Shown: positions 4,024-62,405, numbered from the stretch's first letter. The stretch: 64,000 nt of DNA from a virus (IMGVR_UViG_3300045988_129927), one strand, 5' to 3'. Numbers and translations: made by a program. The notes: generated by a model from the letters alone, not told the origin.

Positions 4024-4389
4024 TTAAACTTCAGTGGCACTACCTGAGCGAGCATTACGGCGAGATTCCTCACCAGTTACAGCATCACCGGCACCTGCGC
4101 GACCTGCTTCGGCATTTACTGGAGGTACGAAGTTAGCGCGGTTGGTAGCTGCATCACTACCAGTTTCTTCTTTACCAGCTTTACCATCAGCTTTTTCTTC
4201 TTTAGCTGGTGGTAATTCACCACGATACATTGCTTTACGGTTTTTCACCAATTGGTCATTGTGTTCGTCTTTAGGCAAAGTCTCATCATTGTAAACAACT
4301 TTCAGACCAGCAATCAAAGTAGAATCAGATTCCAAAGGTTTCTCAGTAGGTTCTAGCTCAATAGGGAGCTTAGGGAATTTTTTAGACAT
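4024..4389 (-). CDS. low-complexity Ala/Gly/Glu/Lys-rich protein
   Basis: 121 aa with an AAAGGA RBS and no hydrophobic core. Visibly G+C-richer than its flanks, which produces the 86-aa antisense ORF 4034..4294. Confidence 0.7.
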   Translation of the reverse strand: MSKKFPKLPIELEPTEKPLESDSTLIAGLKVVYNDETLPKDEHNDQLVKNRKAMYRGELPPAKEEKADGKAGKEETGSDAATNRANFVPPVNAEAGRAGAGDAVTGEESRRNARSGSATEV

Positions 4390-4443
4390 TATAATATCCT
4401 TTTTTCAATTTAAAGATTAACATTAATCGAGTATCCATCGACC

Positions 4444-4498
4444 TCATAAAAACATAATAAACTATTTCCCTCTAGAGTAGGATATCCTACTCTAGAGG
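4444..4498 (-). promoter_or_regulatory. hairpin + TTATGTT box module upstream of 4389
   Basis: Perfect palindrome CCTCTAGAGTAGGATATCCTACTCTAGAGG (4468-4498), followed on the minus strand by GAAATAGTTTATTATGTTTTTATG. The same module recurs at 28660, 30076, 35393, 35758, 40749, 59572, 62641 and 19391(-). Confidence 0.45.
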
Positions 4499-4499
4499 T

Positions 4500-4890
4500 A
4501 CTATAGCTTTTCTTTTCATCAACTTCTCTTAAAAGGAAACCAAAACGATTCAGTGATTACCGTCCCTGTTTAATACACTGATTGAGGTGGTCGTTAGGTC
4601 ATTATCCACCTATGGAAATTTTCGGTACTTGTATTCGCTTCCATGTGTAGCCTAATTCCAGCGGAGAGTGAACGAGGAGTGGCCGGATGTGACTAGTTAT
4701 AGAATTTCTATCTATCGTAAAACTTTGTTTAGAAGTGTACCGAGGGATTACCCTTACAATAGATATTCAGCCTTATTGTTTCTTCAACTATCAAAGGCAA
4801 ACGAATAAAATCAACTTTAAATAAACAAACTAGGAAAATACGAACGAAGCAATTAGTCTTAAAAATCACTTTATTCATATATAGTGTAAA
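4500..4890 (-). ncRNA. candidate structured noncoding RNA / long 3' UTR
   Basis: About 390 nt with no ORF, between the stop of 4891..5334 and the hairpin at 4468-4498. Has locally G+C-rich blocks (CACATCCGGCCACTCCTCGTTCACTCTCCGCTGG; CCATAGGTGGATAATGACCTAACGACCACC). Strand is assumed from the flanking genes. Confidence 0.3.
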
Positions 4891-32700: not shown

Positions 32701-33585
32701 ATGACGTCAGAAATGATTAAAGTCACTAAACGAGACGGACGTCTAGAGAGTTTAGATATTGAGAAAATTCACCGAGTGGTGACGTGGGCTGCCGAAGGAT
32801 TGGATGTCTCTCCATCTGAAGTAGAATTAAAAGCCCAAATTCAGTTATACAATGGTATTCGTACTGAAGATATCCACGCTACTTTAATTAAGTCAGCTGC
32901 AGACTTAATTAGTTTAGAGAATCCTGATTATCAATACATGGCTGCTCGATTGGCTGTATTTAATATTCGTAAAATCGCCTATGGTGAATATACACCTCCT
33001 AGACTTTATACACATATTCATTCGATGATTGAAAAAGGCATTTACGATAAAGAGATTTTAGAGAAATATACTGAAGAAGAAATCGATTTAATTGAATCTT
33101 TTGTAGACCATAATCGCGATATGAATTTTGCTTATGCTGGTATTAAGCAAATGGAAAGTAAATACTTGGTACAAAACCGAGTAACTAAACGAGTATACGA
33201 ATCTCCACAAGTTGCTTTTATTCTAATTCCTACTTATTTATTTGCAGAATATCCTAAAGAAACTCGTTTAGATTATATTAAGAAATTCTATAATGCATTG
33301 TCATTGTTTAAGATTTCATTACCTACCCCTATCATGGCAGGCGTACGTACTCCTACCAAGCAATTCTCAAGCTGTACCGTCGTTCCATGTGGTGATAGCT
33401 TAGATAGCATTAATGCAGCTAATTCTGCTATTGTTAAATATATCTCTCAACGAGCAGGTATTGGTATCGAAGGTGGTCGTATTCGTGCATTGGGTAGTGA
33501 AATTCGTAAAGGTGAAGCTATCCATACTGGTGTTATTCCATTTTGGAAGATGTTCCAAGCAGCTGTAAAATCATGTTCTCAGGGT
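32701..33585 (+). CDS. nrdA: ribonucleotide reductase class Ia alpha subunit, exon 1
   Basis: ATP-cone VTKRDGRLESLDIEKI, FSSCTVVPCGDSLDSI, and the ending ...AVKSCSQG. The track's tail KLFCPAL* is read-through into the intron. Confidence 0.9.
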
Positions 33586-33943
33586 AAACTATTCTGCCCA
33601 GCTCTGTAGAAATATAGAGTTAAAAACATCACTCTTAATTGCTGGGAAATCTATACAAAGTATAGACAATCAGCAGCCAATACCTAATTGTATTTATATA
33701 CATTTAGGGAAGGTTCAACGACTAGTCGAAAGACGTACCACTCAAGTGAGGTCTCTGTAACGGAGTTTGGGGAAATAGAGTGACTACCGCAGTGGATTAA
33801 TGTAATCCTCTATGTGGTTTCCTTATATTAGGAATCTTACCAGGTAATGCTGGAGAAGAAGATATAGTCTCAACGTCTATGGTAACATAGAGCTGTCTAT
33901 AATAGACAGGATACGGATTAACGACCCGTATTGAAGATATTTG
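33586..33943 (+). ncRNA. group I intron (ORF-less, T4 td/IA2-like)
   Basis: Starts AAAC after the exon U. GCCC lies 10 nt inside and can pair with the exon GGGU (P1 with a U-G pair). Contains GATATAGTCT and GATTAACGACC, with the terminal G 17 nt after the latter. Removing it restores SCSQG-GIRGGAATL. Confidence 0.8.
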
Positions 33944-35335
33944 GGAATTCGTGGTGGAGCTGCTACTTTATCTTATCCTATTTGGCATTTGGAAGTTGAG
34001 TCGTTATTAGTATTAAAAAATAACCGTGGTGTAGAAGACAACCGTATTCGTCAGTTAGACTACAGTGTGCAGATTAATAAACTAATGTATCAGCGTTTGA
34101 TTGAGGATAAAGACATTACATTACTGTCTCCTCATTCTGTAGAAGGTCTATACGATGCTTACTTTAACGATCAAGAGCTATTTGAGAAATTGTATTTAGA
34201 AGCTGAAAATAATCCTCTGATTCCTAAGAAGACTATTAAAGCTACTGAATTGTTTACACTGTTGATGTCAGAACGTGCAAACACTGGTCGTATTTACATC
34301 ATGAACGTAGACCACTCAAACACACATTCTTCATTCATTGAAAAAGAAGCTACAGTCTATATTAGCAACTTATGTCAAGAAATTACGCTACCTACTAAAC
34401 CTTTAAATAATATCCTAGATGAAGAAGGTGAGATTGCTTTATGTACACTAGGTGCTTTAAACCTAGGTACTGTAGATAAAGATAAGTTAGAAGATATTGA
34501 AGAGTCTATGGACTTAATTGTACGTGCTCTTGATTCTGTATTAGATTATCAAAACTATCCTGTTAAAGCAGCTCGTAATTCTGTAGATAAATATCGTCCA
34601 TTAGGTATTGGTGTAATTAACTATGCTTATTACTTAGCTAAAAATGGTGCTCGTTATAGTAATGCTAGTGGGCATAAGCTAACTCACGAATTGTTTGAAG
34701 CTATTCAGTATTATGCTTTAAAATCATCAGTGCAATTAGCTAAAGAAAAAGGTAAGTGTGGTGCATTTAAAAACACTAAATACTCTAAAGGTATTTTACC
34801 AATCGATACTTATAAAAAGTCTATTGACGAATTTGCTTCATTTGACTATAAACTAGATTGGGAAAGCCTTCGTAAAGATATTGTAGAGTATGGTTTACGT
34901 AATGCTACACTGACTAGTTTAATGCCATCAGAGAGCAGTAGTCAAGTAAGTAATGCGACTAATGGTATTGATTTACCTCGTGGTCCTATTACTGTTAAGG
35001 CTTCTAAAGACGGTATTTTAAAACAAGTCGTTCCGGAATATGAAAAATTAGCTTATGATTACGAATACTTGTGGTACGATAGTAATAATATGGGTATGTT
35101 GAAACTTGTAGCCATTATGCAAAAGTTTGTAGACCAATCTATTTCTACTAATACTCGTTATAATCCAGCTAATTATCCTAATGGTAAAGTACCCATGAAA
35201 GAGATGTTAAAAGAGCTATTGCTTGCGTATAAGTATGGTGTTAAGACTTTGTACTATCACCACACTAACGATGGTTCTGATGACACTCAGGATAGCTTAG
35301 ATGACGGTTGTGCAGGTGGTGCTTGTAAAATCTAA
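33944..35335 (+). CDS. nrdA: ribonucleotide reductase class Ia alpha subunit, exon 2
   Basis: GIRGGAATLSYPIWHLEVESLLVLKNNRG, SNLCQEITLP, LMPSESSSQVSNATNG, and C-terminal DDGCAGGACKI. The spliced product is 758 aa. Confidence 0.9.
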   Translation, partial: GIRGGAATLSYPIWHLEVESLLVLKNNRGVEDNRIRQLDYSVQINKLMYQRLIEDKDITLLSPHSVEGLYDAYFNDQELFEKLYLEAENNPLIPKKTIKATELFTLLMSERANTGRIYIMNVDHSNTHSSFIEKEATVYISNLCQEITLPTKPLNNILDEEGEIALCTLGALNLGTVDKDKLEDIEESMDLIVRALDSVLDYQNYPVKAARNSVDKYRPLGIGVINYAYYLAKNGARYSNASGHKLTHELFEAIQYYALKSSVQLAKEKGKCGAFKNTKYSKGILPIDTYKKSIDEFASFDYKLDWESLRKDIVEYGLRNATLTSLMPSESSSQVSNATNGIDLPRGPITVKASKDGILKQVVPEYEKLAYDYEYLWYDSNNMGMLKLVAIMQKFVDQSISTNTRYNPANYPNGKVPMKEMLKELLLAYKYGVKTLYYHHTNDGSDDTQDSLDDGCAGGACKI

Positions 35336-40486: not shown

Positions 40487-40577
40487 TTCGATTTCCTTTA
40501 TATAAAATATTTTCTATCCCTTATATGAAGGGAAAAAGAAAGACAGTGTTACTAGCATTGTCTTTCTTTTGGTGAGG

Positions 40578-40718
40578 TTAGCGAATAATCGCTAACCAAT
40601 TATCGAATACGTCGTTTTTCGACTGTTCGAATTTTTTAAGTATAGCTTTTTCAGTTTCTGAAAGTTCTATACCGCACAGAACTTTGTTCTGTAGAACTTG
40701 AATTAAACGCATATCCAT
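40578..40718 (-). CDS. small helical protein, paralog B (46 aa, not in ORF track)
   Basis: Sequence MDMRLIQVLQNKVLCGIELSETEKAILKKFEQSKNDVFDNWLAIIR, preceded by CAGAAAGGAGGTGAAAAA-ATG. Shares the pattern MD..(.)LIQ.LQ.K...E.E...L...D.WL with 35444..35593. Confidence 0.55.
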   Translation of the reverse strand: MDMRLIQVLQNKVLCGIELSETEKAILKKFEQSKNDVFDNWLAIIR

Positions 40719-40748
40719 TTTTTCACCTCCTTTCTGCGACATGACTAA

Positions 40749-40795
40749 CCCTCTATTCCTGTTGCTGCAGGAATAGAGGATTGTCGTTTTATGTT
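40749..40795. promoter_or_regulatory. hairpin + TTATGTT box module
   Basis: CCTCTATTCCTG-N6-CAGGAATAGAGG, then ATTGTCGTTTTATGTTAATT on the plus strand. Confidence 0.4.
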
Positions 40796-40924
40796 AATTA
40801 ATAAAATCAAATAGAGAAAGAGTTTAACTCTTTCTCTATTATCACTTAAATAGTATATGTTTAAATTAAACTAAGTAATTTGTTTTATTCATGATGGCTA
40901 TCGATAGCTTCCTCAATAGCCTTT

Positions 40925-42983: not shown

Positions 42984-43296
42984 CGAAGCTGTCCACTACG
43001 GTCGTTAATCGTAGCCGGTGTGCTCAAGACACCCGCCCAATATCACTATTGGGGTCAGACTATATCACGATCTATTATTAAAATAGACCCTCTGCGTTTG
43101 GCGGACTAAACGATTGTCCACTACTCTACTTTCTCTAATAAATAATTAGGATTTCGATAGTCGTTAGAGTTTGTCAGTTTAAATAGCATAATTTAAACGT
43201 CTTTACTACGGGATTGTCTATAATAAATATAATAGAGTTTCCCCGTTTAGCAGAGTTATTCGACTACCATCACTGATAGAAGCCGCAATGAAGTTT
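42984..43296 (-). ncRNA. group I intron 2 of nrdB (ORF-less, T4 td-like core)
   Basis: On the minus strand it starts AAACTTCATTGCGG after the exon ...CCGU (P1 is CCGU/GCGG). Contains CTAAACGGGGAAAC...AGACAATCCCGT, CTAACGACTATCG, GATATAGTCTG and GATTAACGACC, and ends in G 16 nt after the last. Confidence 0.8.
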
Positions 43297-43364
43297 ACGG
43301 GAAATTAATTTAATGATTTTAGCATTACCTTCCATGAGTTTACGTTCGGCAAAACTAAAGCTAC
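43297..43364 (-). CDS. nrdB: ribonucleotide reductase beta subunit, exon 2 (68-nt mini-exon)
   Basis: Encodes (C)SFSFAERKLMEGNAKIIKLISR, exactly the R2 segment missing between ...RFYVSFA and DEALHL. Confidence 0.85.
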
Positions 43365-43757
43365 CGTTACATTTAATATGGGTCGTTAGGCCATACAATA
43401 CCTACTTTGAGATATTCCCTATCTTTCAATAGGATACTAGACTATATCACCATCTCCGACATTACTCGGTAAGACTCCCTACTAATTAGTAAGAAGGATA
43501 CATAGAGGTTTTTCAACCACTGTATCTGCTCTCTATTTGGAACTCACTTGAGTCCTACGTCTTTCGACTAGTCGTTGAAGTTTCTACTTTTATTATACAA
43601 AAGTAGCTTACCTGCTGATTACCCAATCTTATTTATTTTCAAACATTCACGCCTGTCGTCACCGACTACGTTGTAGTTAAATAAGCTCTAAGGGATTCCC
43701 AGCAATTAAGAGAGTTTTTTATCTTATTATTTCTAATAAGTTGCGCATAAATTGTTT
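43365..43757 (-). ncRNA. group I intron 1 of nrdB (ORF-less)
   Basis: On the minus strand it starts AAACAATTTATGCGC after the exon ...GCGU (P1 is GCGU/GCGC). Shares long blocks with the nrdA intron (CTCTTAATTGCTGGGAA, TTCAACGACTAGTCGAAAGACGTA, GATATAGTCT, CTAACGACCC). Ends in G 16 nt after TAACGACC. Confidence 0.8.
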
Positions 43758-44448
43758 ACGCAAAAGATACATAGAAACGAATGGCTTCAAGTACATTCAC
43801 CACAAACATACAAAGATAAATCTTCTTCATCAGTTCACGTTTGCTAATTTCAATACGATGGTAAGATTCCATCAGACCATCTTTTGATTGTTTCTTAATT
43901 TCAAAAACACCTTCTCCTAGAAGATTATAATATTGAGAATATTCAATCAAATCATCGTAGTATTGAGAAATTGCACTTGCGCGTTTCTTAATTTCTTCGT
44001 TTACTACAATACTATCAAACTCTTCACTAGGGTCAATCAATACATTACGCATGATGTACGTATAAGAGTAAGAATGGATGCCTTCGAAGGCGGTCCAGAA
44101 TATCGTCCAGTGTTCTAATTCAGGGATAGAAATCAAGGGAAGGAATGCAATGGATGGACTTCTTCCCTGAATTGCATCCAAAAGTGACTGATAATCCAGA
44201 TTACGCAAGAAAATATGCTTCTCATGCTCTGGTAAACCTTCAAAATCGATACGGTCTTTGGACAAATCTATTTCTTCAGGGCGCCAGAAGAACGACTTTT
44301 GCTTTTCTGTTAAATCATTGTATACCTGATACTTAGCTTTATCGTATCGTTGTAAGTTAATAGATTGACCTAAGAACATTGCTTCTTTAGTAGCATCATT
44401 AGGTGTTTGATTAAATACTGAAAATCGTTGTTTTATTTGTTCACTCAT
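43758..44448 (-). CDS. nrdB: ribonucleotide reductase beta subunit, exon 1
   Basis: [15 protein letters not shown] (cf. the iron-ligand EAIHSRSY motif), ending ...[10 protein letters not shown] plus the first base of a Cys codon. The track's stop codon lies in the intron. Confidence 0.9.
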
Positions 44449-57408: not shown

Positions 57409-58152
57409 TTAACGACCGAAGTAAGCCAGTAGACGATTACGAGCCATTTCGCTAAAACCATATTGCAGTGCACGACCCATGTCAATTTCTTTATTGATTT
57501 TGCTACTACGAGTAGTAGGGTCAGCCAATACAGACAACATAGTCATTAAGTTAGGATAGCATTGCTGTTCTACTAAGTCAAGACGAATGTTCTCTTGGAA
57601 GCGCATGAGAGAGAAGATATTAAGTGGTTGACCTTCTTTACCGTGTTTTACGAACAACTGCATCAGTAAGTCCATAGAGTAACGGAAATCTAAGTCTGAA
57701 GTCTTAGTGATAATATCCATAATGTTACGGAAGAGTTCTGCTTGCATGATAGGGCCTTGATTAGTCACAAAGCCTTTATCGTTCATTAGAACACGGATAA
57801 CGCCTTTGAAAGATTCCATCTTCTCAACATAGTCGATAATACCAAGCAAAGACATACGAGCAGTAAGGCTTACTAAACCTAGTACTTCATCTACATCTAA
57901 TTCACCTGCTACATGACGACGACGGTCTGCTTCTTGCTCTTGTTCTAAGTCTACAGAAGGATTGTGGATTTCCTCTGTAGCATCAGGAAGCAGAATGTCA
58001 TCAGTAGTATATTCACGACCTTCTTCGATAGAAGGGGAATCTTCGTTAGAGACTTCTTTAATTTCTTCAGCTTCTTCTAAGAGGATAGGTTCTGCATTAG
58101 CAGGATTCATACCATTGCGGTTATTACCGCGTTGTTTTTGACGATTAGACAT
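57409..58152 (-). CDS. hypothetical protein with acidic disordered N-terminal third
   Basis: 247-aa ORF with G+C-richer codon usage. First gene on the minus side of the 1.5-kb divergent noncoding region. Confidence 0.75.
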   Translation of the reverse strand: MSNRQKQRGNNRNGMNPANAEPILLEEAEEIKEVSNEDSPSIEEGREYTTDDILLPDATEEIHNPSVDLEQEQEADRRRHVAGELDVDEVLGLVSLTARMSLLGIIDYVEKMESFKGVIRVLMNDKGFVTNQGPIMQAELFRNIMDIITKTSDLDFRYSMDLLMQLFVKHGKEGQPLNIFSLMRFQENIRLDLVEQQCYPNLMTMLSVLADPTTRSSKINKEIDMGRALQYGFSEMARNRLLAYFGR

Positions 58153-58245
58153 TGTTAATATTCCTTATAGGGTTAAATGTACATTAGAACGACTATAAAG
58201 TAATCATTCATAAGCTTAGCTAGAATGGATAATAGGGGTAAATAT

Positions 58246-58308
58246 ACCCTACGGTGTAGCGTGTACTAAGGGGTATGAAAAGGGTAGGTAAACCCTACGC
58301 TGTAGCGT
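58246..58308. repeat. 17-nt direct repeat pair (iteron-like)
   Basis: ACCCTACGGTGTAGCGT (58246-58262) and ACCCTACGCTGTAGCGT (58292-58308) match at 16 of 17 positions and lie 46 bp apart. They are interspersed with (A)GGGTA motifs. Confidence 0.6.
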
Positions 58309-58331
58309 ATGGTTTTATGTTAAATTTTAAA

Positions 58332-58398
58332 GGGGGGTTTTCCCCCCTCTCCTCCTCCTCCCTAACAACCCTCCTCCTCCTCACCCCCCTTTCCCCCC
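58332..58398. repeat. G6T4C6 palindrome plus ~60-nt C-rich polypyrimidine tract (G-quadruplex/i-motif potential)
   Basis: GGGGGGTTTTCCCCCCTCTCCTCCTCCTCCCTAACAACCCTCCTCCTCCTCACCCCCCTTTCCCCCC. The complementary strand carries G6, G7, (GGA)n and several G3 runs. This is extreme for an AT-rich genome. Confidence 0.7.
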
Positions 58399-58414
58399 AA
58401 AAAAGAAAGAAAAA

Positions 58415-58504
58415 GACTACTATATTATTCCACTCGTCACTCCCCACCTCGTTCCGTTATCACTTCACTCGAAAGGTCATTCCTCGTTTCATAATATAGT
58501 AGTC
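58415..58504. repeat. 14-bp perfect inverted repeat with 62-nt spacer, flanked by purine tracts
   Basis: GACTACTATATTAT (58415-58428) pairs with ATAATATAGTAGTC (58491-58504). AAAAAAGAAAGAAAAAG lies to the left and a 48-nt A-rich run (58505-58552) to the right. Confidence 0.7.
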
Positions 58505-58700
58505 TAAAAAGAAAGAAAAAAAATAAAAAATAAAAACAAATAAAAAAACAAATAGAGAGAAAGCTTATGCTTTCTCTTTGTAACTACGTTGCTTAAACAA
58601 GAAGGTATAAAAGGGAATAAAAGACAAATGAAGCAACGCACGTTACTAACGTCTTTGGATAAACCAAAGACTATTTGTAATAGGTTTTCAACCCTTACAC

Positions 58701-58782
58701 AAATCCCACTACTCGAATAGATGGTATATCCAAGAAGGTATACCTCTATTCGCCTGTGGCACTAGTATCCGTAGTGGGATTT
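58701..58782. ncRNA. structured element 1 of a tandem pair (82 nt)
   Basis: A 12-bp closing stem AAATCCCACTAC/GTAGTGGGATTT encloses a 14-bp bulged hairpin CGAATAGA(T)GGTATA/TATACCTCTATTCG and an 18-nt single-stranded segment ending in TAGTATCC. Confidence 0.45.
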
Positions 58783-58810
58783 GCTTTATTGAGTTATTCA
58801 ACTATTCCTA

Positions 58811-58890
58811 TACTCACTCACTCGAATAAATGGATTACAAGTGGTAGTATCCATTATTCTGTCTACGACGTTAGTATCCGTGAGTGAGTA
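58811..58890. ncRNA. structured element 2 of a tandem pair (80 nt)
   Basis: An 11-bp closing stem TACTCACTCAC/GTGAGTGAGTA encloses the inner bulged hairpin GAATA(A)ATGGAT/ATCCATTATTC. Shares ACTCGAATA.ATGG and TAGTATCCGT with element 1, while the stems covary. Confidence 0.45.
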
Positions 58891-58924
58891 TGGGTTTTTA
58901 AATATCTTCTAATCCTCTTAACCC

Positions 58925-58968
58925 TATCCTCTTTAGCATACGCCTAAAGAGGCGATAAAGAGGATAGT
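58925..58968. other. hairpin with alternative pairing registers
   Basis: CTATCCTCTTTA...TAAAGAGGATAG forms a 12-bp outer stem. The inner CGCC-TAAAGA-GGCG supplies a second TAAAGAGG copy that could pair with CCTCTTTA instead. Confidence 0.4.
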
Positions 58969-59037
58969 GTTATTCGTACTTAGAAGATGGTTGCAGAAGC
59001 AACAGATAGGGATAGAGAAATAAGGATAAGGATAAAT

Positions 59038-59077
59038 CCAACAAGCTCTCGCTTAAAGGTCAACAAGATCCAACAAG
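59038..59077. repeat. three (C/T)CAACAAG repeats
   Basis: CCAACAAG at 59038, TCAACAAG at 59060 and CCAACAAG at 59070, followed by the G+C-rich GGTATCCACCATGACAGGTGGCGCTCTGGTCTCGCGC. Confidence 0.5.
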
Positions 59078-59571
59078 TCTGGTATCCACCATGACAGGTG
59101 GCGCTCTGGTCTCGCGCTACCCCAAGTATGTTTCGCGCGATTTTAAGTTTTTTTATAAGTCTATATATATGCTGAAATATATTTTTGAACAATGTAAACT
59201 AAAAACTAAGTAATGAAATCGAAAAACCACTTCCTATGAAATCTATTGAAAGTTTAGTACCTTTACTAACCTAGACGTAAAGATAACGATTAAGCTATTG
59301 TTTGGATAAGGCTCGTTATAAGGTGATTAGGGTTTAAACCACAAGGATGCAAAACAAATTGAATCAGTGTCCTTTTGTGGTTAATATAACTCAGGTTAAG
59401 AACCTTGTAAATACTGGTCTTGAGAATAATGACTTAGTTGTTTGTAATGCACGTTATGTGGAAAATGTTTCTGAAAACTTATAATGGGATAAAACGTGCT
59501 TAGTAAAGTATTGAATGAGTATTTATTTCTTTTGTTAATCCTAAAGTTGATTTTATATTGATTTTTATAAA

Positions 59572-59617
59572 CACTATACTCAGGCGAATACCTGAGTATA
59601 GTGTATTTTTTTATGTA
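59572..59617 (+). promoter_or_regulatory. hairpin + TTATGT box module upstream of 59662
   Basis: CACTATACTCAGG-CGAATA-CCTGAGTATAGTG, then TATTTTTTTATGTACTTTTG. Confidence 0.45.
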
Positions 59618-59661
59618 CTTTTGAATATCAATGAAAATATAGCTTAAAAAGGTAGATTGAG

Positions 59662-60687
59662 ATGTCCGTCCGATTTATAGAACGAAGTTTATTCGATTGT
59701 GATATTAGTTTAACAAACTTAGCAGTACCGGTATGTTACGAAGGATTACCTGATAAAGATTCGGTAAGAATTACAGAAGTCTTTAAAGAAACGTATCCTC
59801 TTTGGTATGGTATGTTTAAAGAACTAGAAGATGATTACTTTAGTGAAAATGGTTATTGGTGTTTTAGTACCGAGAATGTGAACTTAGTAAGTATCCCTTA
59901 TGCTATTCTCGATAAACCATTTGAGTTTAACATGGATGTGTTTATCCATGCTTTAAAGAAATTTGAAAAAGGTTATTTTGAAGACAATGGTATTGGACAT
60001 TGTATTGACGAATTAAGAATACCTGTGGTTCAATATTTCTCAACAGAAGAATCTTGGTTAGATTTCCAAGAAAAGATAGAAAAAGAGTTATTCAACACTC
60101 GTGTATTGTTTACATTCTGTATTGATTCTAATAAGTGTCCTAATCGATTTAACGCTATGTTTACAGAAGATAAGGTTCACGGCAATACCTATTGGTTTAA
60201 AGGTTCTAGTCCATTAGGTATTGTAGGTAATAGGCCTGTGTTTATAAACTCTCCTACAGGTGAGTTAAAGCAGTATAACAATATACTCGAAGCCATTTAC
60301 GATTATGTGGATTTTAATCTGATGAGTGATACAGTAAGACCAAAAGACCATAGTGGTTTTATTGAATCAACTAAAAAAGATTTGATAGAGTATATTACTA
60401 CTAAACGTACTAACATCTTACCTAGTGGTAAAAAACTATTTGATATTGTTTCTTATGTCGTAAAAACAGGCATTGCTTCTCGTTATAATCAAGACGAGAA
60501 GTTTAAAGAACAAATCGAAGAATTAAAAAGACAAAGAGTCAACCAAATCTATTATTGTGGATATGAATTTCCTAGACTACTAGGTGTTGATTTGGATATG
60601 TCTGAATTAAGTTACGATGTAAGTAATATAGAGATTAAATGTCGTAATCTACTAGGTAATATTTTAACAGAATACTTATACTCTTAA
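59662..60687 (+). CDS. hypothetical protein
   Basis: 341-aa ORF with AAAAAGGTAGATTGAG-ATG. No motif recognised. Confidence 0.8.
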   Translation: MSVRFIERSLFDCDISLTNLAVPVCYEGLPDKDSVRITEVFKETYPLWYGMFKELEDDYFSENGYWCFSTENVNLVSIPYAILDKPFEFNMDVFIHALKKFEKGYFEDNGIGHCIDELRIPVVQYFSTEESWLDFQEKIEKELFNTRVLFTFCIDSNKCPNRFNAMFTEDKVHGNTYWFKGSSPLGIVGNRPVFINSPTGELKQYNNILEAIYDYVDFNLMSDTVRPKDHSGFIESTKKDLIEYITTKRTNILPSGKKLFDIVSYVVKTGIASRYNQDEKFKEQIEELKRQRVNQIYYCGYEFPRLLGVDLDMSELSYDVSNIEIKCRNLLGNILTEYLYS

Positions 60688-60713
60688 ACGTATACTTAAA
60701 AAGGAAAAGATAA

Positions 60714-61343
60714 ATGTATTTGAATAGTAACGAGATTAAGGCATTAGCTCATGCTGATGTTCCTGTGATTACTGACTTTGTTAGTAAAAAAGTAAGTATG
60801 GTAGATGGCCGTATTGTTGCTTCTTACGGATTAGCTGAAAATTGTTACGATGTTCGTATTGCTGAAACACCATTGGAATTGGTTGTTCCTACTTCTAGTA
60901 TTACCCCTAATAAGGATAATCATGCTCATGCGGTATTGGATATCAAGAAAGACTTGGGTGAACAAAAAGAGTTAACTCGTCTTTTCATTGAACCTATTCG
61001 AGAAAGAGACGGTACAGTCTATTTTCTAATCCCACCTAAAACCATGGTATTGGCACACACTGTTGAGCGATTCAATATCCCTAATGACATCAGTGGTGTT
61101 CTTTACTGTAAGTCTTCTTATGCTCGTGTAGGCATGAATATGGCACCTACTACACTGAAGTCAGGTTGGTCGGGACAATTGGTGCTAGAGATTTATAATC
61201 AAACCAATATTCACATGCGTGTATATGCTAATGAAGGTATTGGTACGATTTATTTCTCAAGACATACTCCCAGTAACGATAATGTAGGATACAATGGTGT
61301 ATACCAAGACCAGACAGGTATTACACACGCTAAAACAAAATAG
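60714..61343 (+). CDS. dcd: dCTP deaminase (dUTPase-superfamily)
   Basis: YCKSSYARVGM, GWSGQLVLEIYN and EGIGTIYF match the Dcd signature blocks (SS.aR.G; G..G.l.LE..N). AAAAAGGAAAAGATAA-ATG. Confidence 0.82.
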   Translation: MYLNSNEIKALAHADVPVITDFVSKKVSMVDGRIVASYGLAENCYDVRIAETPLELVVPTSSITPNKDNHAHAVLDIKKDLGEQKELTRLFIEPIRERDGTVYFLIPPKTMVLAHTVERFNIPNDISGVLYCKSSYARVGMNMAPTTLKSGWSGQLVLEIYNQTNIHMRVYANEGIGTIYFSRHTPSNDNVGYNGVYQDQTGITHAKTK

Positions 61344-62332: not shown

Positions 62333-62405
62333 TCCCTTATAGCTCAGTGGGTAGAGCGTCTGCCTTATACGCAGGTTGTCGGGTGTTCGAATCATCCTAA
62401 GGAAA
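62333..62405 (+). tRNA. tRNA-Ile (anticodon UAU)
   Basis: Cloverleaf read by eye: acceptor TCCCTTA/TAAGGAA (one C-A mismatch at 2:71), D arm GCTC-AGTGGGTA-GAGC, anticodon arm TCTGC-CTTATAC-GCAGG, T arm GGGTG-TTCGAAT-CATCC. No encoded CCA. Confidence 0.75.

Follow-up and report, generated by a model that had tools for sequence, protein, structure and literature searches.

A mosaic noncoding region between divergent phage genes, with candidate small structured RNAs and transcription boundaries

Locus and coding capacity

We examined positions 58153 to 59661 of a 64,000-nucleotide stretch of viral DNA (IMGVR_UViG_3300045988_129927; the whole stretch is called the window), where a 22-kb block of leftward genes meets a rightward block and a region crowded with repeats and hairpins separates the two (Table 1). 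The flanking genes, at 57409-58152(-) and 59662-60687(+), are referred to as the left and right genes. Between open reading frames (ORFs) of at least 100 amino acids, this is the biggest gap in the window and also the biggest divergent junction. The genes nearest to it are an endolysin-like gene, genes of unknown function, and a dCTP deaminase gene, none of which is a replication gene, and the terminase gene lies 39 kb away. The 64 kb encode a DNA polymerase, the large terminase, a tail sheath, ribonucleotide reductase, the dCTP deaminase, and tRNAs. The tail sheath is about 30% identical to the sheaths of Ralstonia phages RP12 and RSL2 and Burkholderia phage FLC9; its other matches among 257 records belong to phages listed under Pseudomonas, Erwinia, and further hosts. 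We take the source to be an uncultivated jumbo myovirus distantly related to phiKZ.

Relatives were drawn from IMG/VR and from ENA/JGI metagenomes and formed two related lineages (contigs are cited by L numbers). Lineage 1, with contigs of 228 to 244 kb, is about 87 to 97% identical to the window over the region. In lineage 2, the sister lineage (247 to 260 kb), the homolog of the left gene is 47 to 53% identical. Searches of GenBank phage nucleotide sequences, near and distant, gave no DNA-level match to the region, and RP12, the nearest cultured relative for the left gene, has no comparable gap beside its homolog of that gene. For the right gene, tblastn against phages gave no match; it is a lineage-specific orphan for which only its own cluster was matched in a set of 5.8 billion proteins. 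PDB sequence searches with both flanking proteins were uninformative, and their single SDR match, at 27 bits, was judged spurious. No Rfam 15 family matched at its gathering score within 58153-59661.

The region is noncoding. A first-pass annotation of the window had seen no credible ORF here, and this is borne out by short frames, frameshifting indels, and absent gene calls. The longest stop-free frames are 87, 85, and 79 codons. Recoding by stop read-through was rejected, since no frame exceeds 138 codons even with any one stop codon read. Frameshifting indels are numerous among the relatives all along the region, its variable sites show no 3-base periodicity, and gene callers on four other independent assemblies placed no gene in it. 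A pseudogene was rejected as well: the ORFs from the equivalent region of the sister lineage had no tblastn match in the region of the window.

The earlier statement that spacers in this genome are typically under 120 nt was too strong, as 16 gaps exceed 150 nt, including gaps of 1038, 817, 738, and 674 nt. The second-biggest gene-poor gap (55451-56488, 1038 nt) contains small minus-strand ORFs and a 42%-GC stretch (56100-56400). On its minus strand, an A-rich run of about 90 nt (56080-55990) is followed by a 16-bp GC-rich hairpin (55965-55931), and this style of A-run then hairpin resembles 58506-58579.

Constrained blocks and paired elements

All of the features that the first-pass annotation had claimed for the region were found at, or within a few bases of, the places it gave. 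Nucleotide diversity (pi) among 17 distinct lineage-1 sequences was set against the flanking genes, where pi is 0.134 to 0.140 at third codon positions, 0.038 to 0.047 at first positions, and 0.016 to 0.023 at second positions. Purifying selection matching that on first and second codon positions acts on about 650 of the 1,509 nt (about 40%), made up of the left gene leader, the G6T4C6 hairpin with its C-rich tract, and the roughly 400-nt hairpin chain at 58586-58980; the constrained blocks evolve 4 to 12 times more slowly than third positions. The region is functional, but it is a mosaic and not one element.

Table 1. Features of the region and of related sites (pi, nucleotide diversity in lineage 1; z, stability z-score)
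Feature	Position	Strand	pi	Remarks
Left gene leader and probable promoter	58153-58228	-	0.016 (constrained)	Left gene 57409-58152
Two 46-nt direct-repeat units	58229-58321		0.11 (near-neutral)	Each has two short hairpins, GGGTA..TACCC and TACGC..GCGTA
G6T4C6 hairpin and C tract	58321-58413		0.019 (constrained)	
G6T4C6 hairpin, then ~55-nt C-rich tract	58332-58398			Six overlapping CCTCC
A/G tract AAAAAAGAAAGAAAAAG, 15-bp perfect inverted repeat, A/G tract again	58399-58505 (arms 58414-58428 / 58491-58505)		0.12 for the repeat with loop (near-neutral; value reflects two haplotypes)	
A-rich run, 47 nt	58506-58552		0.115 (near-neutral)	T-rich on minus strand; picked up by TRF; length varies among relatives
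Hairpin S7	58554-58579		0.08 (near-neutral)	Minus side, long T-rich run; plus side, TTTGTAAC
Hairpins S8 and S9	58586-58680		0.030 (constrained)	
Hairpin S8	58580-58646	+ (tentative)		Includes ACGTTACTAACGT palindrome
Hairpin S9	58651-58671	+ (tentative)		Then TATTTGTAAT; flagged as plus-strand terminator-like
Twin element A	58700-58783	+ (tentative)	0.041 (constrained)	z -7.7; minus strand folds equally well
Twin element B	58807-58894	+ (tentative)	0.032 (constrained)	Paralog of A; then TTTTTAAAT
Hairpin S12	58919-58972		0.011 (constrained)	17-bp stem, inner 4- to 5-bp hairpin; z -5
Fast-evolving spacer	58981-59565		0.08-0.13	Many indels
CAACAAG/GC-palindrome block			0.13 (near-neutral)	
Rest of right part, up to terminator			0.08-0.09 (near-neutral)	
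Terminal hairpin and ATTTTTTTATG	59571-59615	+		Hairpin 59571-59604: 14 bp, 6-nt loop, then T7
Leader and ribosome-binding site (AAAAAGG) of right gene	59616-59661	+		Right gene 59662-60687
Hairpin+TTATG(T) sites in window	4453, 8401, 19376	-		
Hairpin+TTATG(T) sites in window	28701, 30114, 35805, 40793, 47677, 59615, 62684	+		
~800-nt RNA candidate, sister lineage	L016:1880-2760 (minus strand of contig); L010:2421-3280; L020:1544-2420			Also in L013, L039, L043, L044, L054, L058
77- to 78-nt inverted repeat, sister lineage	L010 3619-3695 / 4796-4872; L016 3105-3182 / 4436-4513; L020 2764-2841 / 4117-4194			

Stability z-scores of -4 to -8 were obtained across 58480-58975 and at the terminal hairpin, and 58980-59480 is not unusually structured (z of about +1 to -2). 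The uninterrupted chain of hairpins described in the first pass holds up, with z of -4 to -8 on both strands over 58553-58972. G+C content over 58500-59100 is 0.32 to 0.39, which is not raised.

Within the chain, the S8/S9 stretch (58580-58671) has a z of -7.3, and its stems are invariant among relatives while the loops vary. Elements A and B, each of ~85 nt, share a three-helix shape: besides the closing helix (P1) of 13 to 15 bp, both have a long hairpin, a mini-hairpin, and 10 nt of single strand. In A, P1 has 13 bp, the mini-hairpin has 3 bp, and the single strand ends in UAGUAUCCG. The helix sequences of the two elements differ, with changes at 10 of 13 P1 pairs between the arms, and the interior is shared, including the junction motifs ACUCGAAUAnAUGG and UAGUAUCCGU.

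A covariance model seeded on A only (R1) detected B at 36 to 44 bits (E of 1e-9 to 1e-7). In a structural alignment of A and B, which was fitted to the model and compares effectively two paralogs, 31 pairs are 95.4% paired, compared to 32 to 42% in slid controls, and 14 pairs have changed on both sides, a count reached by none of 500 shuffles. On a plain MAFFT alignment of A with B, both sides differed at 7 of the 15 P1 pairs, and pairing held in 93% of cells (27 to 50% in slid controls). Within lineage 1, B also shows an AT-to-GC compensation at 58825:58858 and a GC-to-GU change at 58824:58859. Taken together, the twins have a common secondary structure with compensatory changes, which is the pattern of a structured RNA family; a DNA hairpin would show the same pattern.

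The left third has a different character. Its direct repeat and GGGTA motifs, noted in the first pass, are real in the form of a 46-nt double-hairpin repeat (58229-58262 / 58275-58308), but relatives carry one to three copies. These units were flagged as terminator-like on both strands. Beside them, the G6T4C6 palindrome and C-rich tract stand out beyond chance and are unique in the window. The stretch 58332-58398 holds four of the five G/C homopolymers of at least 5 nt in the window, the C-rich tract is the sole 40-nt segment with at least 60% C in the 64 kb, and the tract at 58338-58401 has six of the nine plus-strand CCTCC motifs in the window. Read from the minus strand, it shows G-runs and repeated GGAGG. 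The inverted repeat between purine tracts, perfect over 15 bp, encloses a 62-nt pyrimidine-rich loop. Its arms occur as two haplotypes with 7 differing positions, all of them compensated; these positions are linked and so represent few events. The adjoining A-rich run is likewise as described and is the only 40-nt segment with at least 80% A in the 64 kb. S7-type hairpins number one or two per relative, and their loops and stems differ yet still pair; S7 itself is a candidate bidirectional terminator.

Parts of this arrangement recur in the sister lineage. In the L015/L016 subgroup, the C/G layout reads G5-6 AAA G5-6, then 11 to 13 nt containing AGGAG, a G-run, TTsTTA, and a G-run. Next to it in L016 lie an A-run, a 12-bp inverted repeat with a long loop, and a second A-run, which is the same layout.

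At the other end of the region, the spacer (58981-59565) contains three CAACAAG repeats (59039-45, 59061-67, and 59071-77), GC palindromes, an AT-rich stretch, and an imperfect stem at 59338-59383. The CAACAAG repeats exist as first reported, but they lie in a block evolving at a neutral rate (pi of 0.13). The CCACC..GGTGG palindromes are also present; they are not conserved, being broken in 10 of 15 relatives. One contig, L031 (QWCI01004100.1), lacks 58902-59279 (378 nt) and with it S12 and the whole CAACAAG/palindrome block, which may be an assembly artefact or a viable variant. The right ~580 nt appear to be essentially dispensable spacer.

Terminator-type modules and candidate small RNAs

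The TTTTATGTT box at 58312, listed in the first pass, is not particular to this region. It belongs to a genome-wide module composed of a 12- to 19-bp hairpin, 3 to 9 nt, and TTATG(T) or TTATGTT, which occupies at least 10 intergenic sites in the window. The second 46-nt unit, for example, ends in TGGTTTTATGTT and so forms a plus-strand hairpin+TTATGT module. Three hairpin+TTATGTT sites lie at convergent junctions (19376(-), 30114(+), and 35805(+)), and others lie 31 to 64 nt upstream of genes. Since only a terminator makes sense at a convergent junction, the module is probably the terminator motif of this phage, and it may double as a phiKZ-like TATG promoter, forming a terminator-promoter cassette. 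As an observation apart, a 438-nt gap within the leftward block (40487-40924) has two plus-strand hairpin+TATG modules (40793 and 40859), which could be antisense or small-RNA units.

The phiKZ late promoter is TATG, with the G as position +1 and each base essential (PMC4666361; see also PMC12809450), and the terminators of phiKZ have a common sequence motif (PMC10914365). In the window, TTATG similarly follows hairpins 31 to 64 nt upstream of several genes, including the right gene, and the left gene has its counterpart on the minus strand. There, the leader reads cTTATGaatga, with TATG running from 58212 down to 58209, 57 nt ahead of the ATG; by its likeness to phiKZ, this is a probable promoter. 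Unlike the phiKZ promoter, however, the motif of the window also stands at convergent junctions and is therefore at least partly a terminator, and the TATG at 58316-58319 is mutated in relatives (its G is replaced by A or another base in several). In addition, no phage RNA-polymerase gene was seen in the 64 kb, so the promoter analogy stays a lead. In this AT-rich genome, a search for promoter motifs among recurring 11-mers gave too much noise.

The terminal hairpin with its TTATGT, as the first pass had it, is a clear instance of the module. The stable stem at 59571-59604, with the T-run that follows it, is what is predicted of an intrinsic terminator. Among relatives, the loop of the hairpin varies and its stem persists, apart from L004 and L029, which have lost the 5' arm. 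All 15 relatives compared have the TATG at 59612-59615 unchanged, 47 nt ahead of the ATG of the right gene. Altogether, 57300-60800 contains 9 terminator-like sites versus 1.4 expected. To the right of about 58580, the hairpins have their T-rich tails on the plus strand (58672, 58784, 58895, and 59605; S9, A, B, S12, and the terminal hairpin). By direct reading of the sequence, the tails after S7, the inverted repeat, and the G6T4C6 hairpin (G6A4C6 on the other strand) are on the minus strand. No plus-strand gene precedes the strong plus-strand terminator at 59571-59612, and its presence therefore implies that rightward transcription takes place within the region.

The reading that we favor, tentatively, is a modular island in which small structured RNAs and transcription boundaries are combined with a cis element, the single-copy C/G tract. 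One or several small stable structured RNAs, most likely transcribed rightward, would be encoded by the constrained chain of hairpins (58586-58980). These RNAs would end at hairpins with U-rich tails, the last and strongest of which would be the hairpin+UUAUGU terminator typical of the genome (59571-59615). At the edges, the small hairpins would act as terminators or promoters and insulate the two divergent operons. The single-copy block of A-run, inverted repeat, and C/G tract would be a separate cis element, serving as a C-rich (or, from the other strand, G-rich) regulatory RNA or as a site at the DNA level.

For the C-rich option, C-rich small RNAs (sRNAs) of the RsaE/RoxS type offer a model, since they pair with Shine-Dalgarno sequences. 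Like them, the tract has six CCUCC motifs in an unstructured stretch between hairpins. Unlike their case, none of 54 phage genes in the window has GGAGG within 20 nt before its start (AAGGA is found at 32 of 54), and thus any target would be non-phage. We offer purely as a hypothesis that a C-rich RNA could pair with GGAGG-type ribosome-binding sites while sparing phage messages. That a phage whose genes avoid GGAGG should carry one such tract in the window, with six anti-Shine-Dalgarno-like CCUCC, is part of what makes this locus worth pursuing.

The closest precedent comes from phiKZ and 201phi2-1, which produce short RNAs from intergenic regions and 5' untranslated regions and have sequence-conserved terminator motifs (PMC10914365, PMC11512511). 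The likenesses are a giant phage of phiKZ kinship, hairpin terminators with a genome-wide motif, and short structured RNAs upstream of genes and bounded by terminators; some of these sRNAs are conserved between genera. Unlike the RNAs of those phages, which are about 70 to 250 nt and sit in ordinary short leaders, those of the window would come from a 1.5-kb island of about six modules, two of which are paralogous three-helix elements. The predicted RNAs of the window have no sequence or Rfam relation to the known ones.

Several results weigh against small structured RNAs at this locus. Rfam hits with E of up to 10 on 57900-59900 were noise, at 13 to 21 bits and far under family thresholds. 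No promoter for the putative RNAs was identified, and PHROG scans of about 28 proteins and tblastn with the RP12 beta' subunit found no phage RNA-polymerase gene in the 64 kb. The two strands fold equally well, counts of G-U versus A-C changes show no strand bias, and the stems are nearly pure Watson-Crick and so also compatible with DNA-level palindromes. The covariation stems mostly from one ancient A/B duplication and two linked haplotypes, amounting to few independent events, and little of it comes from within the lineage, where A, B, and S12 hardly vary. The A/B motif pair does not occur elsewhere in the window, in the fetched loci, or in IMG/VR, and no twin homolog was found outside the lineage. 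S12 is highly conserved yet missing from L031. Finally, L019-type contigs have a degraded C/G tract, and the upstream sequence read for L010 showed none.

The sister lineage nevertheless raises the prior for RNA function at this locus. Upstream of the left-gene homolog, lineage 2 has 3.8 to 4.2 kb without credible genes, and within it a stretch of about 800 nt has 50% G+C versus a background of 33%. This stretch has no ORF of note (one 77-aa TTG frame) and is 85 to 97% conserved between subgroups whose genes are about 75% identical. A nine-sequence consensus fold has 290 pairs at -330 kcal/mol; about 55 pairs have one-sided G-U-compatible changes, four are doubly compensated, and about nine are broken. 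Loops swap among GAAA, GCAA, and GUAA (GNRA loops). The stretch lies in the plus orientation of the window and closes at a hairpin and T-run resembling 59571-59604. It had no Rfam match at E of up to 1 and is a candidate for a new large ornate phage RNA.

Large ornate RNAs such as GOLLD and ROOL are known (PMC12286853). The sister stretch resembles them in its ~800-nt length, its high G+C in an AT-rich genome, its many helices with GNRA loops, and its place near the tRNA-bearing part; it differs in the missing Rfam match. A multihelix domain of over 500 nt with raised G+C and covariation is found only in the sister lineage, and the window has a chain of separate hairpins instead. A profile of the large RNA had no counterpart in the window, and a conserved 31-mer from this RNA had no exact match in lineage-1 IMG/VR contigs. 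Conversely, a search of the sister lineage with covariance models R1 and R2 of the twin elements gave generic hairpins at up to 22 bits and no convincing homolog. The locus would therefore be a home for noncoding RNA in this phage group, with contents that differ between lineages.

In phiKZ-type giant phages, which have been studied intensively, noncoding DNA is almost unexplored. Here, the twin elements and neighboring hairpins are conserved as tightly as protein-coding positions and match no known RNA family. The locus provides concrete, testable candidates. What needs explaining comes down to about 650 nt, and a genome terminus can be set aside (see below).

Alternative readings and further observations

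We rank a replication origin of the R-loop type, in the left third, as the main rival to small structured RNAs, and consider it unlikely. The A-run, flanked by inverted repeats, would unwind, and a leftward transcript through the G-rich minus-strand tract would make an R-loop or G-quadruplex, end at the G6A4C6 hairpin, and give the primer. In its favor, the C/G tract and A-run adjoin, each is unique within the 64 kb, and constraint on the C/G tract equals that on second codon positions; T-rich minus-strand tails follow S7, the inverted repeat, and the G6A4C6 hairpin; and no divergent junction in the window is larger. In part of the lineage with ~47 to 53% protein identity, the same succession of A-run, inverted repeat, A-run, and G-runs is found. 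However, the A-run is length-variable and near-neutral, the neighbors are not replication genes, part of the sister lineage has lost the G-runs (they are degraded in L019-type relatives), and RP12 is without such a region. The first-pass annotation had spoken of iterons, yet three or more conserved direct repeats beside an initiator gene are not found; there are only the 46-nt units, in one to three near-neutral copies, and CAACAAG three times. GC skew (+0.105 / -0.086) tracks gene orientation. An argument for an origin from its cumulative minimum at 59 kb was rejected, because that minimum follows the gene strand and is not independent evidence.

Transcription-primed or structurally complex origins include ColE1, T4 oriF and oriG, mitochondrial CSBII, and herpesvirus oriLyt. 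The left third is like these in being ORF-free, in lying between divergent genes, in having an oligopyrimidine/G-run tract beside an AT-rich tract and inverted repeats, and in that a G-rich transcript would end at a strong hairpin. It is unlike them in that it has no conserved initiator-type repeats or adjacent replication genes and in that not all relatives have the G-runs. A specific form of this idea, with 58330-58580 as a lytic origin primed by the leftward G-rich transcript and hairpin RNAs in the same control region, seems rather improbable; if true, it would be a bacterial-virus counterpart of oriLyt or CSBII. In a full-text literature search, no mapped origin for phiKZ-type jumbo phages surfaced among the titles and abstracts returned.

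A pure transcription boundary, in which stacked terminators with promoters and leaders at the edges insulate the divergent operons and the RNA itself has no function, is likewise rather improbable as a full account. It would explain the sixfold enrichment of terminator-like sites and the edge hairpins and S7, which keep their structure while sequence and copy number are free (pi of 0.08 to 0.11), and modules of hairpin, T-run, and ribosome-binding site precede most genes of this phage. Yet terminators between divergent operons would serve no purpose if nothing were transcribed there. Moreover, A, B, S8/S9, and S12 keep their loops and junctions too (pi of 0.011 to 0.041), beyond what terminators need and unlike the other terminators of the phage, and terminators are not built as three-helix junctions with conserved single-stranded motifs.

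One structured plus-strand RNA of ~1.3 kb, beginning with the TATG of 58316-58319 and ending at the 59571-59612 terminator, had been proposed in the first pass and is highly unlikely. The plus-strand terminator at its right end stands, a hairpin+TTATGT module lies at both ends, transcription from the late TATG promoters of phiKZ starts at the G (PMC4666361), and the sister-lineage candidate has this orientation. The left TATG does not stand, as it is not conserved, nor does a single large structure, as only 58480-58975 is significantly structured. The module is at convergent junctions as well and so would be a terminator and not necessarily a promoter; several internal hairpins carry T-rich tails; L031 lacks part of the right 580 nt, which are unstructured and near-neutral and have many indels; and G+C is not raised, unlike that of the sister-lineage RNA. 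Several short modules fit better.

Selfish or decaying DNA, that is, functionless palindromic insertions and duplications like those of miniature inverted-repeat transposable elements (MITEs) in a tolerant gap, is very remote. The modular indels and copy-number changes (46-nt units, S7, and the 378-nt deletion), the near-neutral right half, and the A/G-tract direct repeat that flanks the inverted repeat 58414/58491 like a target duplication all suit such DNA. Against it, the constrained blocks change 4 to 12 times more slowly than third codon positions, the divergent arms and conserved interior of A and B are the opposite of transposon terminal repeats, and neither conserved terminal inverted repeats nor further, dispersed copies were found in the window, the fetched loci, or IMG/VR.

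A physical genome terminus or packaging (pac/cos) site, raised in the first pass, is scarcely credible: the sequence is single copy and compositionally extreme and some contigs end inside it (L001 at ~58500, by the A-run; L025, L030, L033, and L035 at ~58357-58386), but at least 12 near-full-length lineage-1 contigs of 228 to 244 kb carry the region away from their ends and at scattered positions, the terminase gene is 39 kb distant, and the other ends fall on ordinary causes of assembly breaks, namely, G/C homopolymers in lineage 1 or a 77- to 78-nt inverted repeat in lineage 2, which disposes of contig-end clustering as a signal.

That inverted repeat is 96% complementary and flanks 1.1 to 1.3 kb of ORF-free DNA. 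The ends of about ten near-full-length lineage-2 contigs cluster within a few hundred bases, at its right arm. It may mark a limit of assembly, as de Bruijn assemblers cannot cross such a repeat, or bound an invertible segment; in the four full contigs examined, the segment between the repeats has the same orientation.

Other features of the window were recorded in passing. A tRNA cluster begins 2.7 kb to the right of the region, with tRNA-Ile(TAT) in the window (62333-62405 and 63942-64000); in relatives (L003 8652-10277), the corresponding cluster has five tRNAs and a group I intron. The window itself has three group I introns. One, at 33576-33892(+), interrupts the ribonucleotide reductase large-subunit gene (32701-33609 / 33941-35335), and two, at 43036-43306(-) and 43417-43767(-), lie within the 817-nt gap beside the small-subunit gene (43756-44448). 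The gene at 53137-54546(-) encodes a phage protein with YadA head, stalk, and membrane-anchor domains, of the trimeric autotransporter adhesin type, which points to a Gram-negative host.

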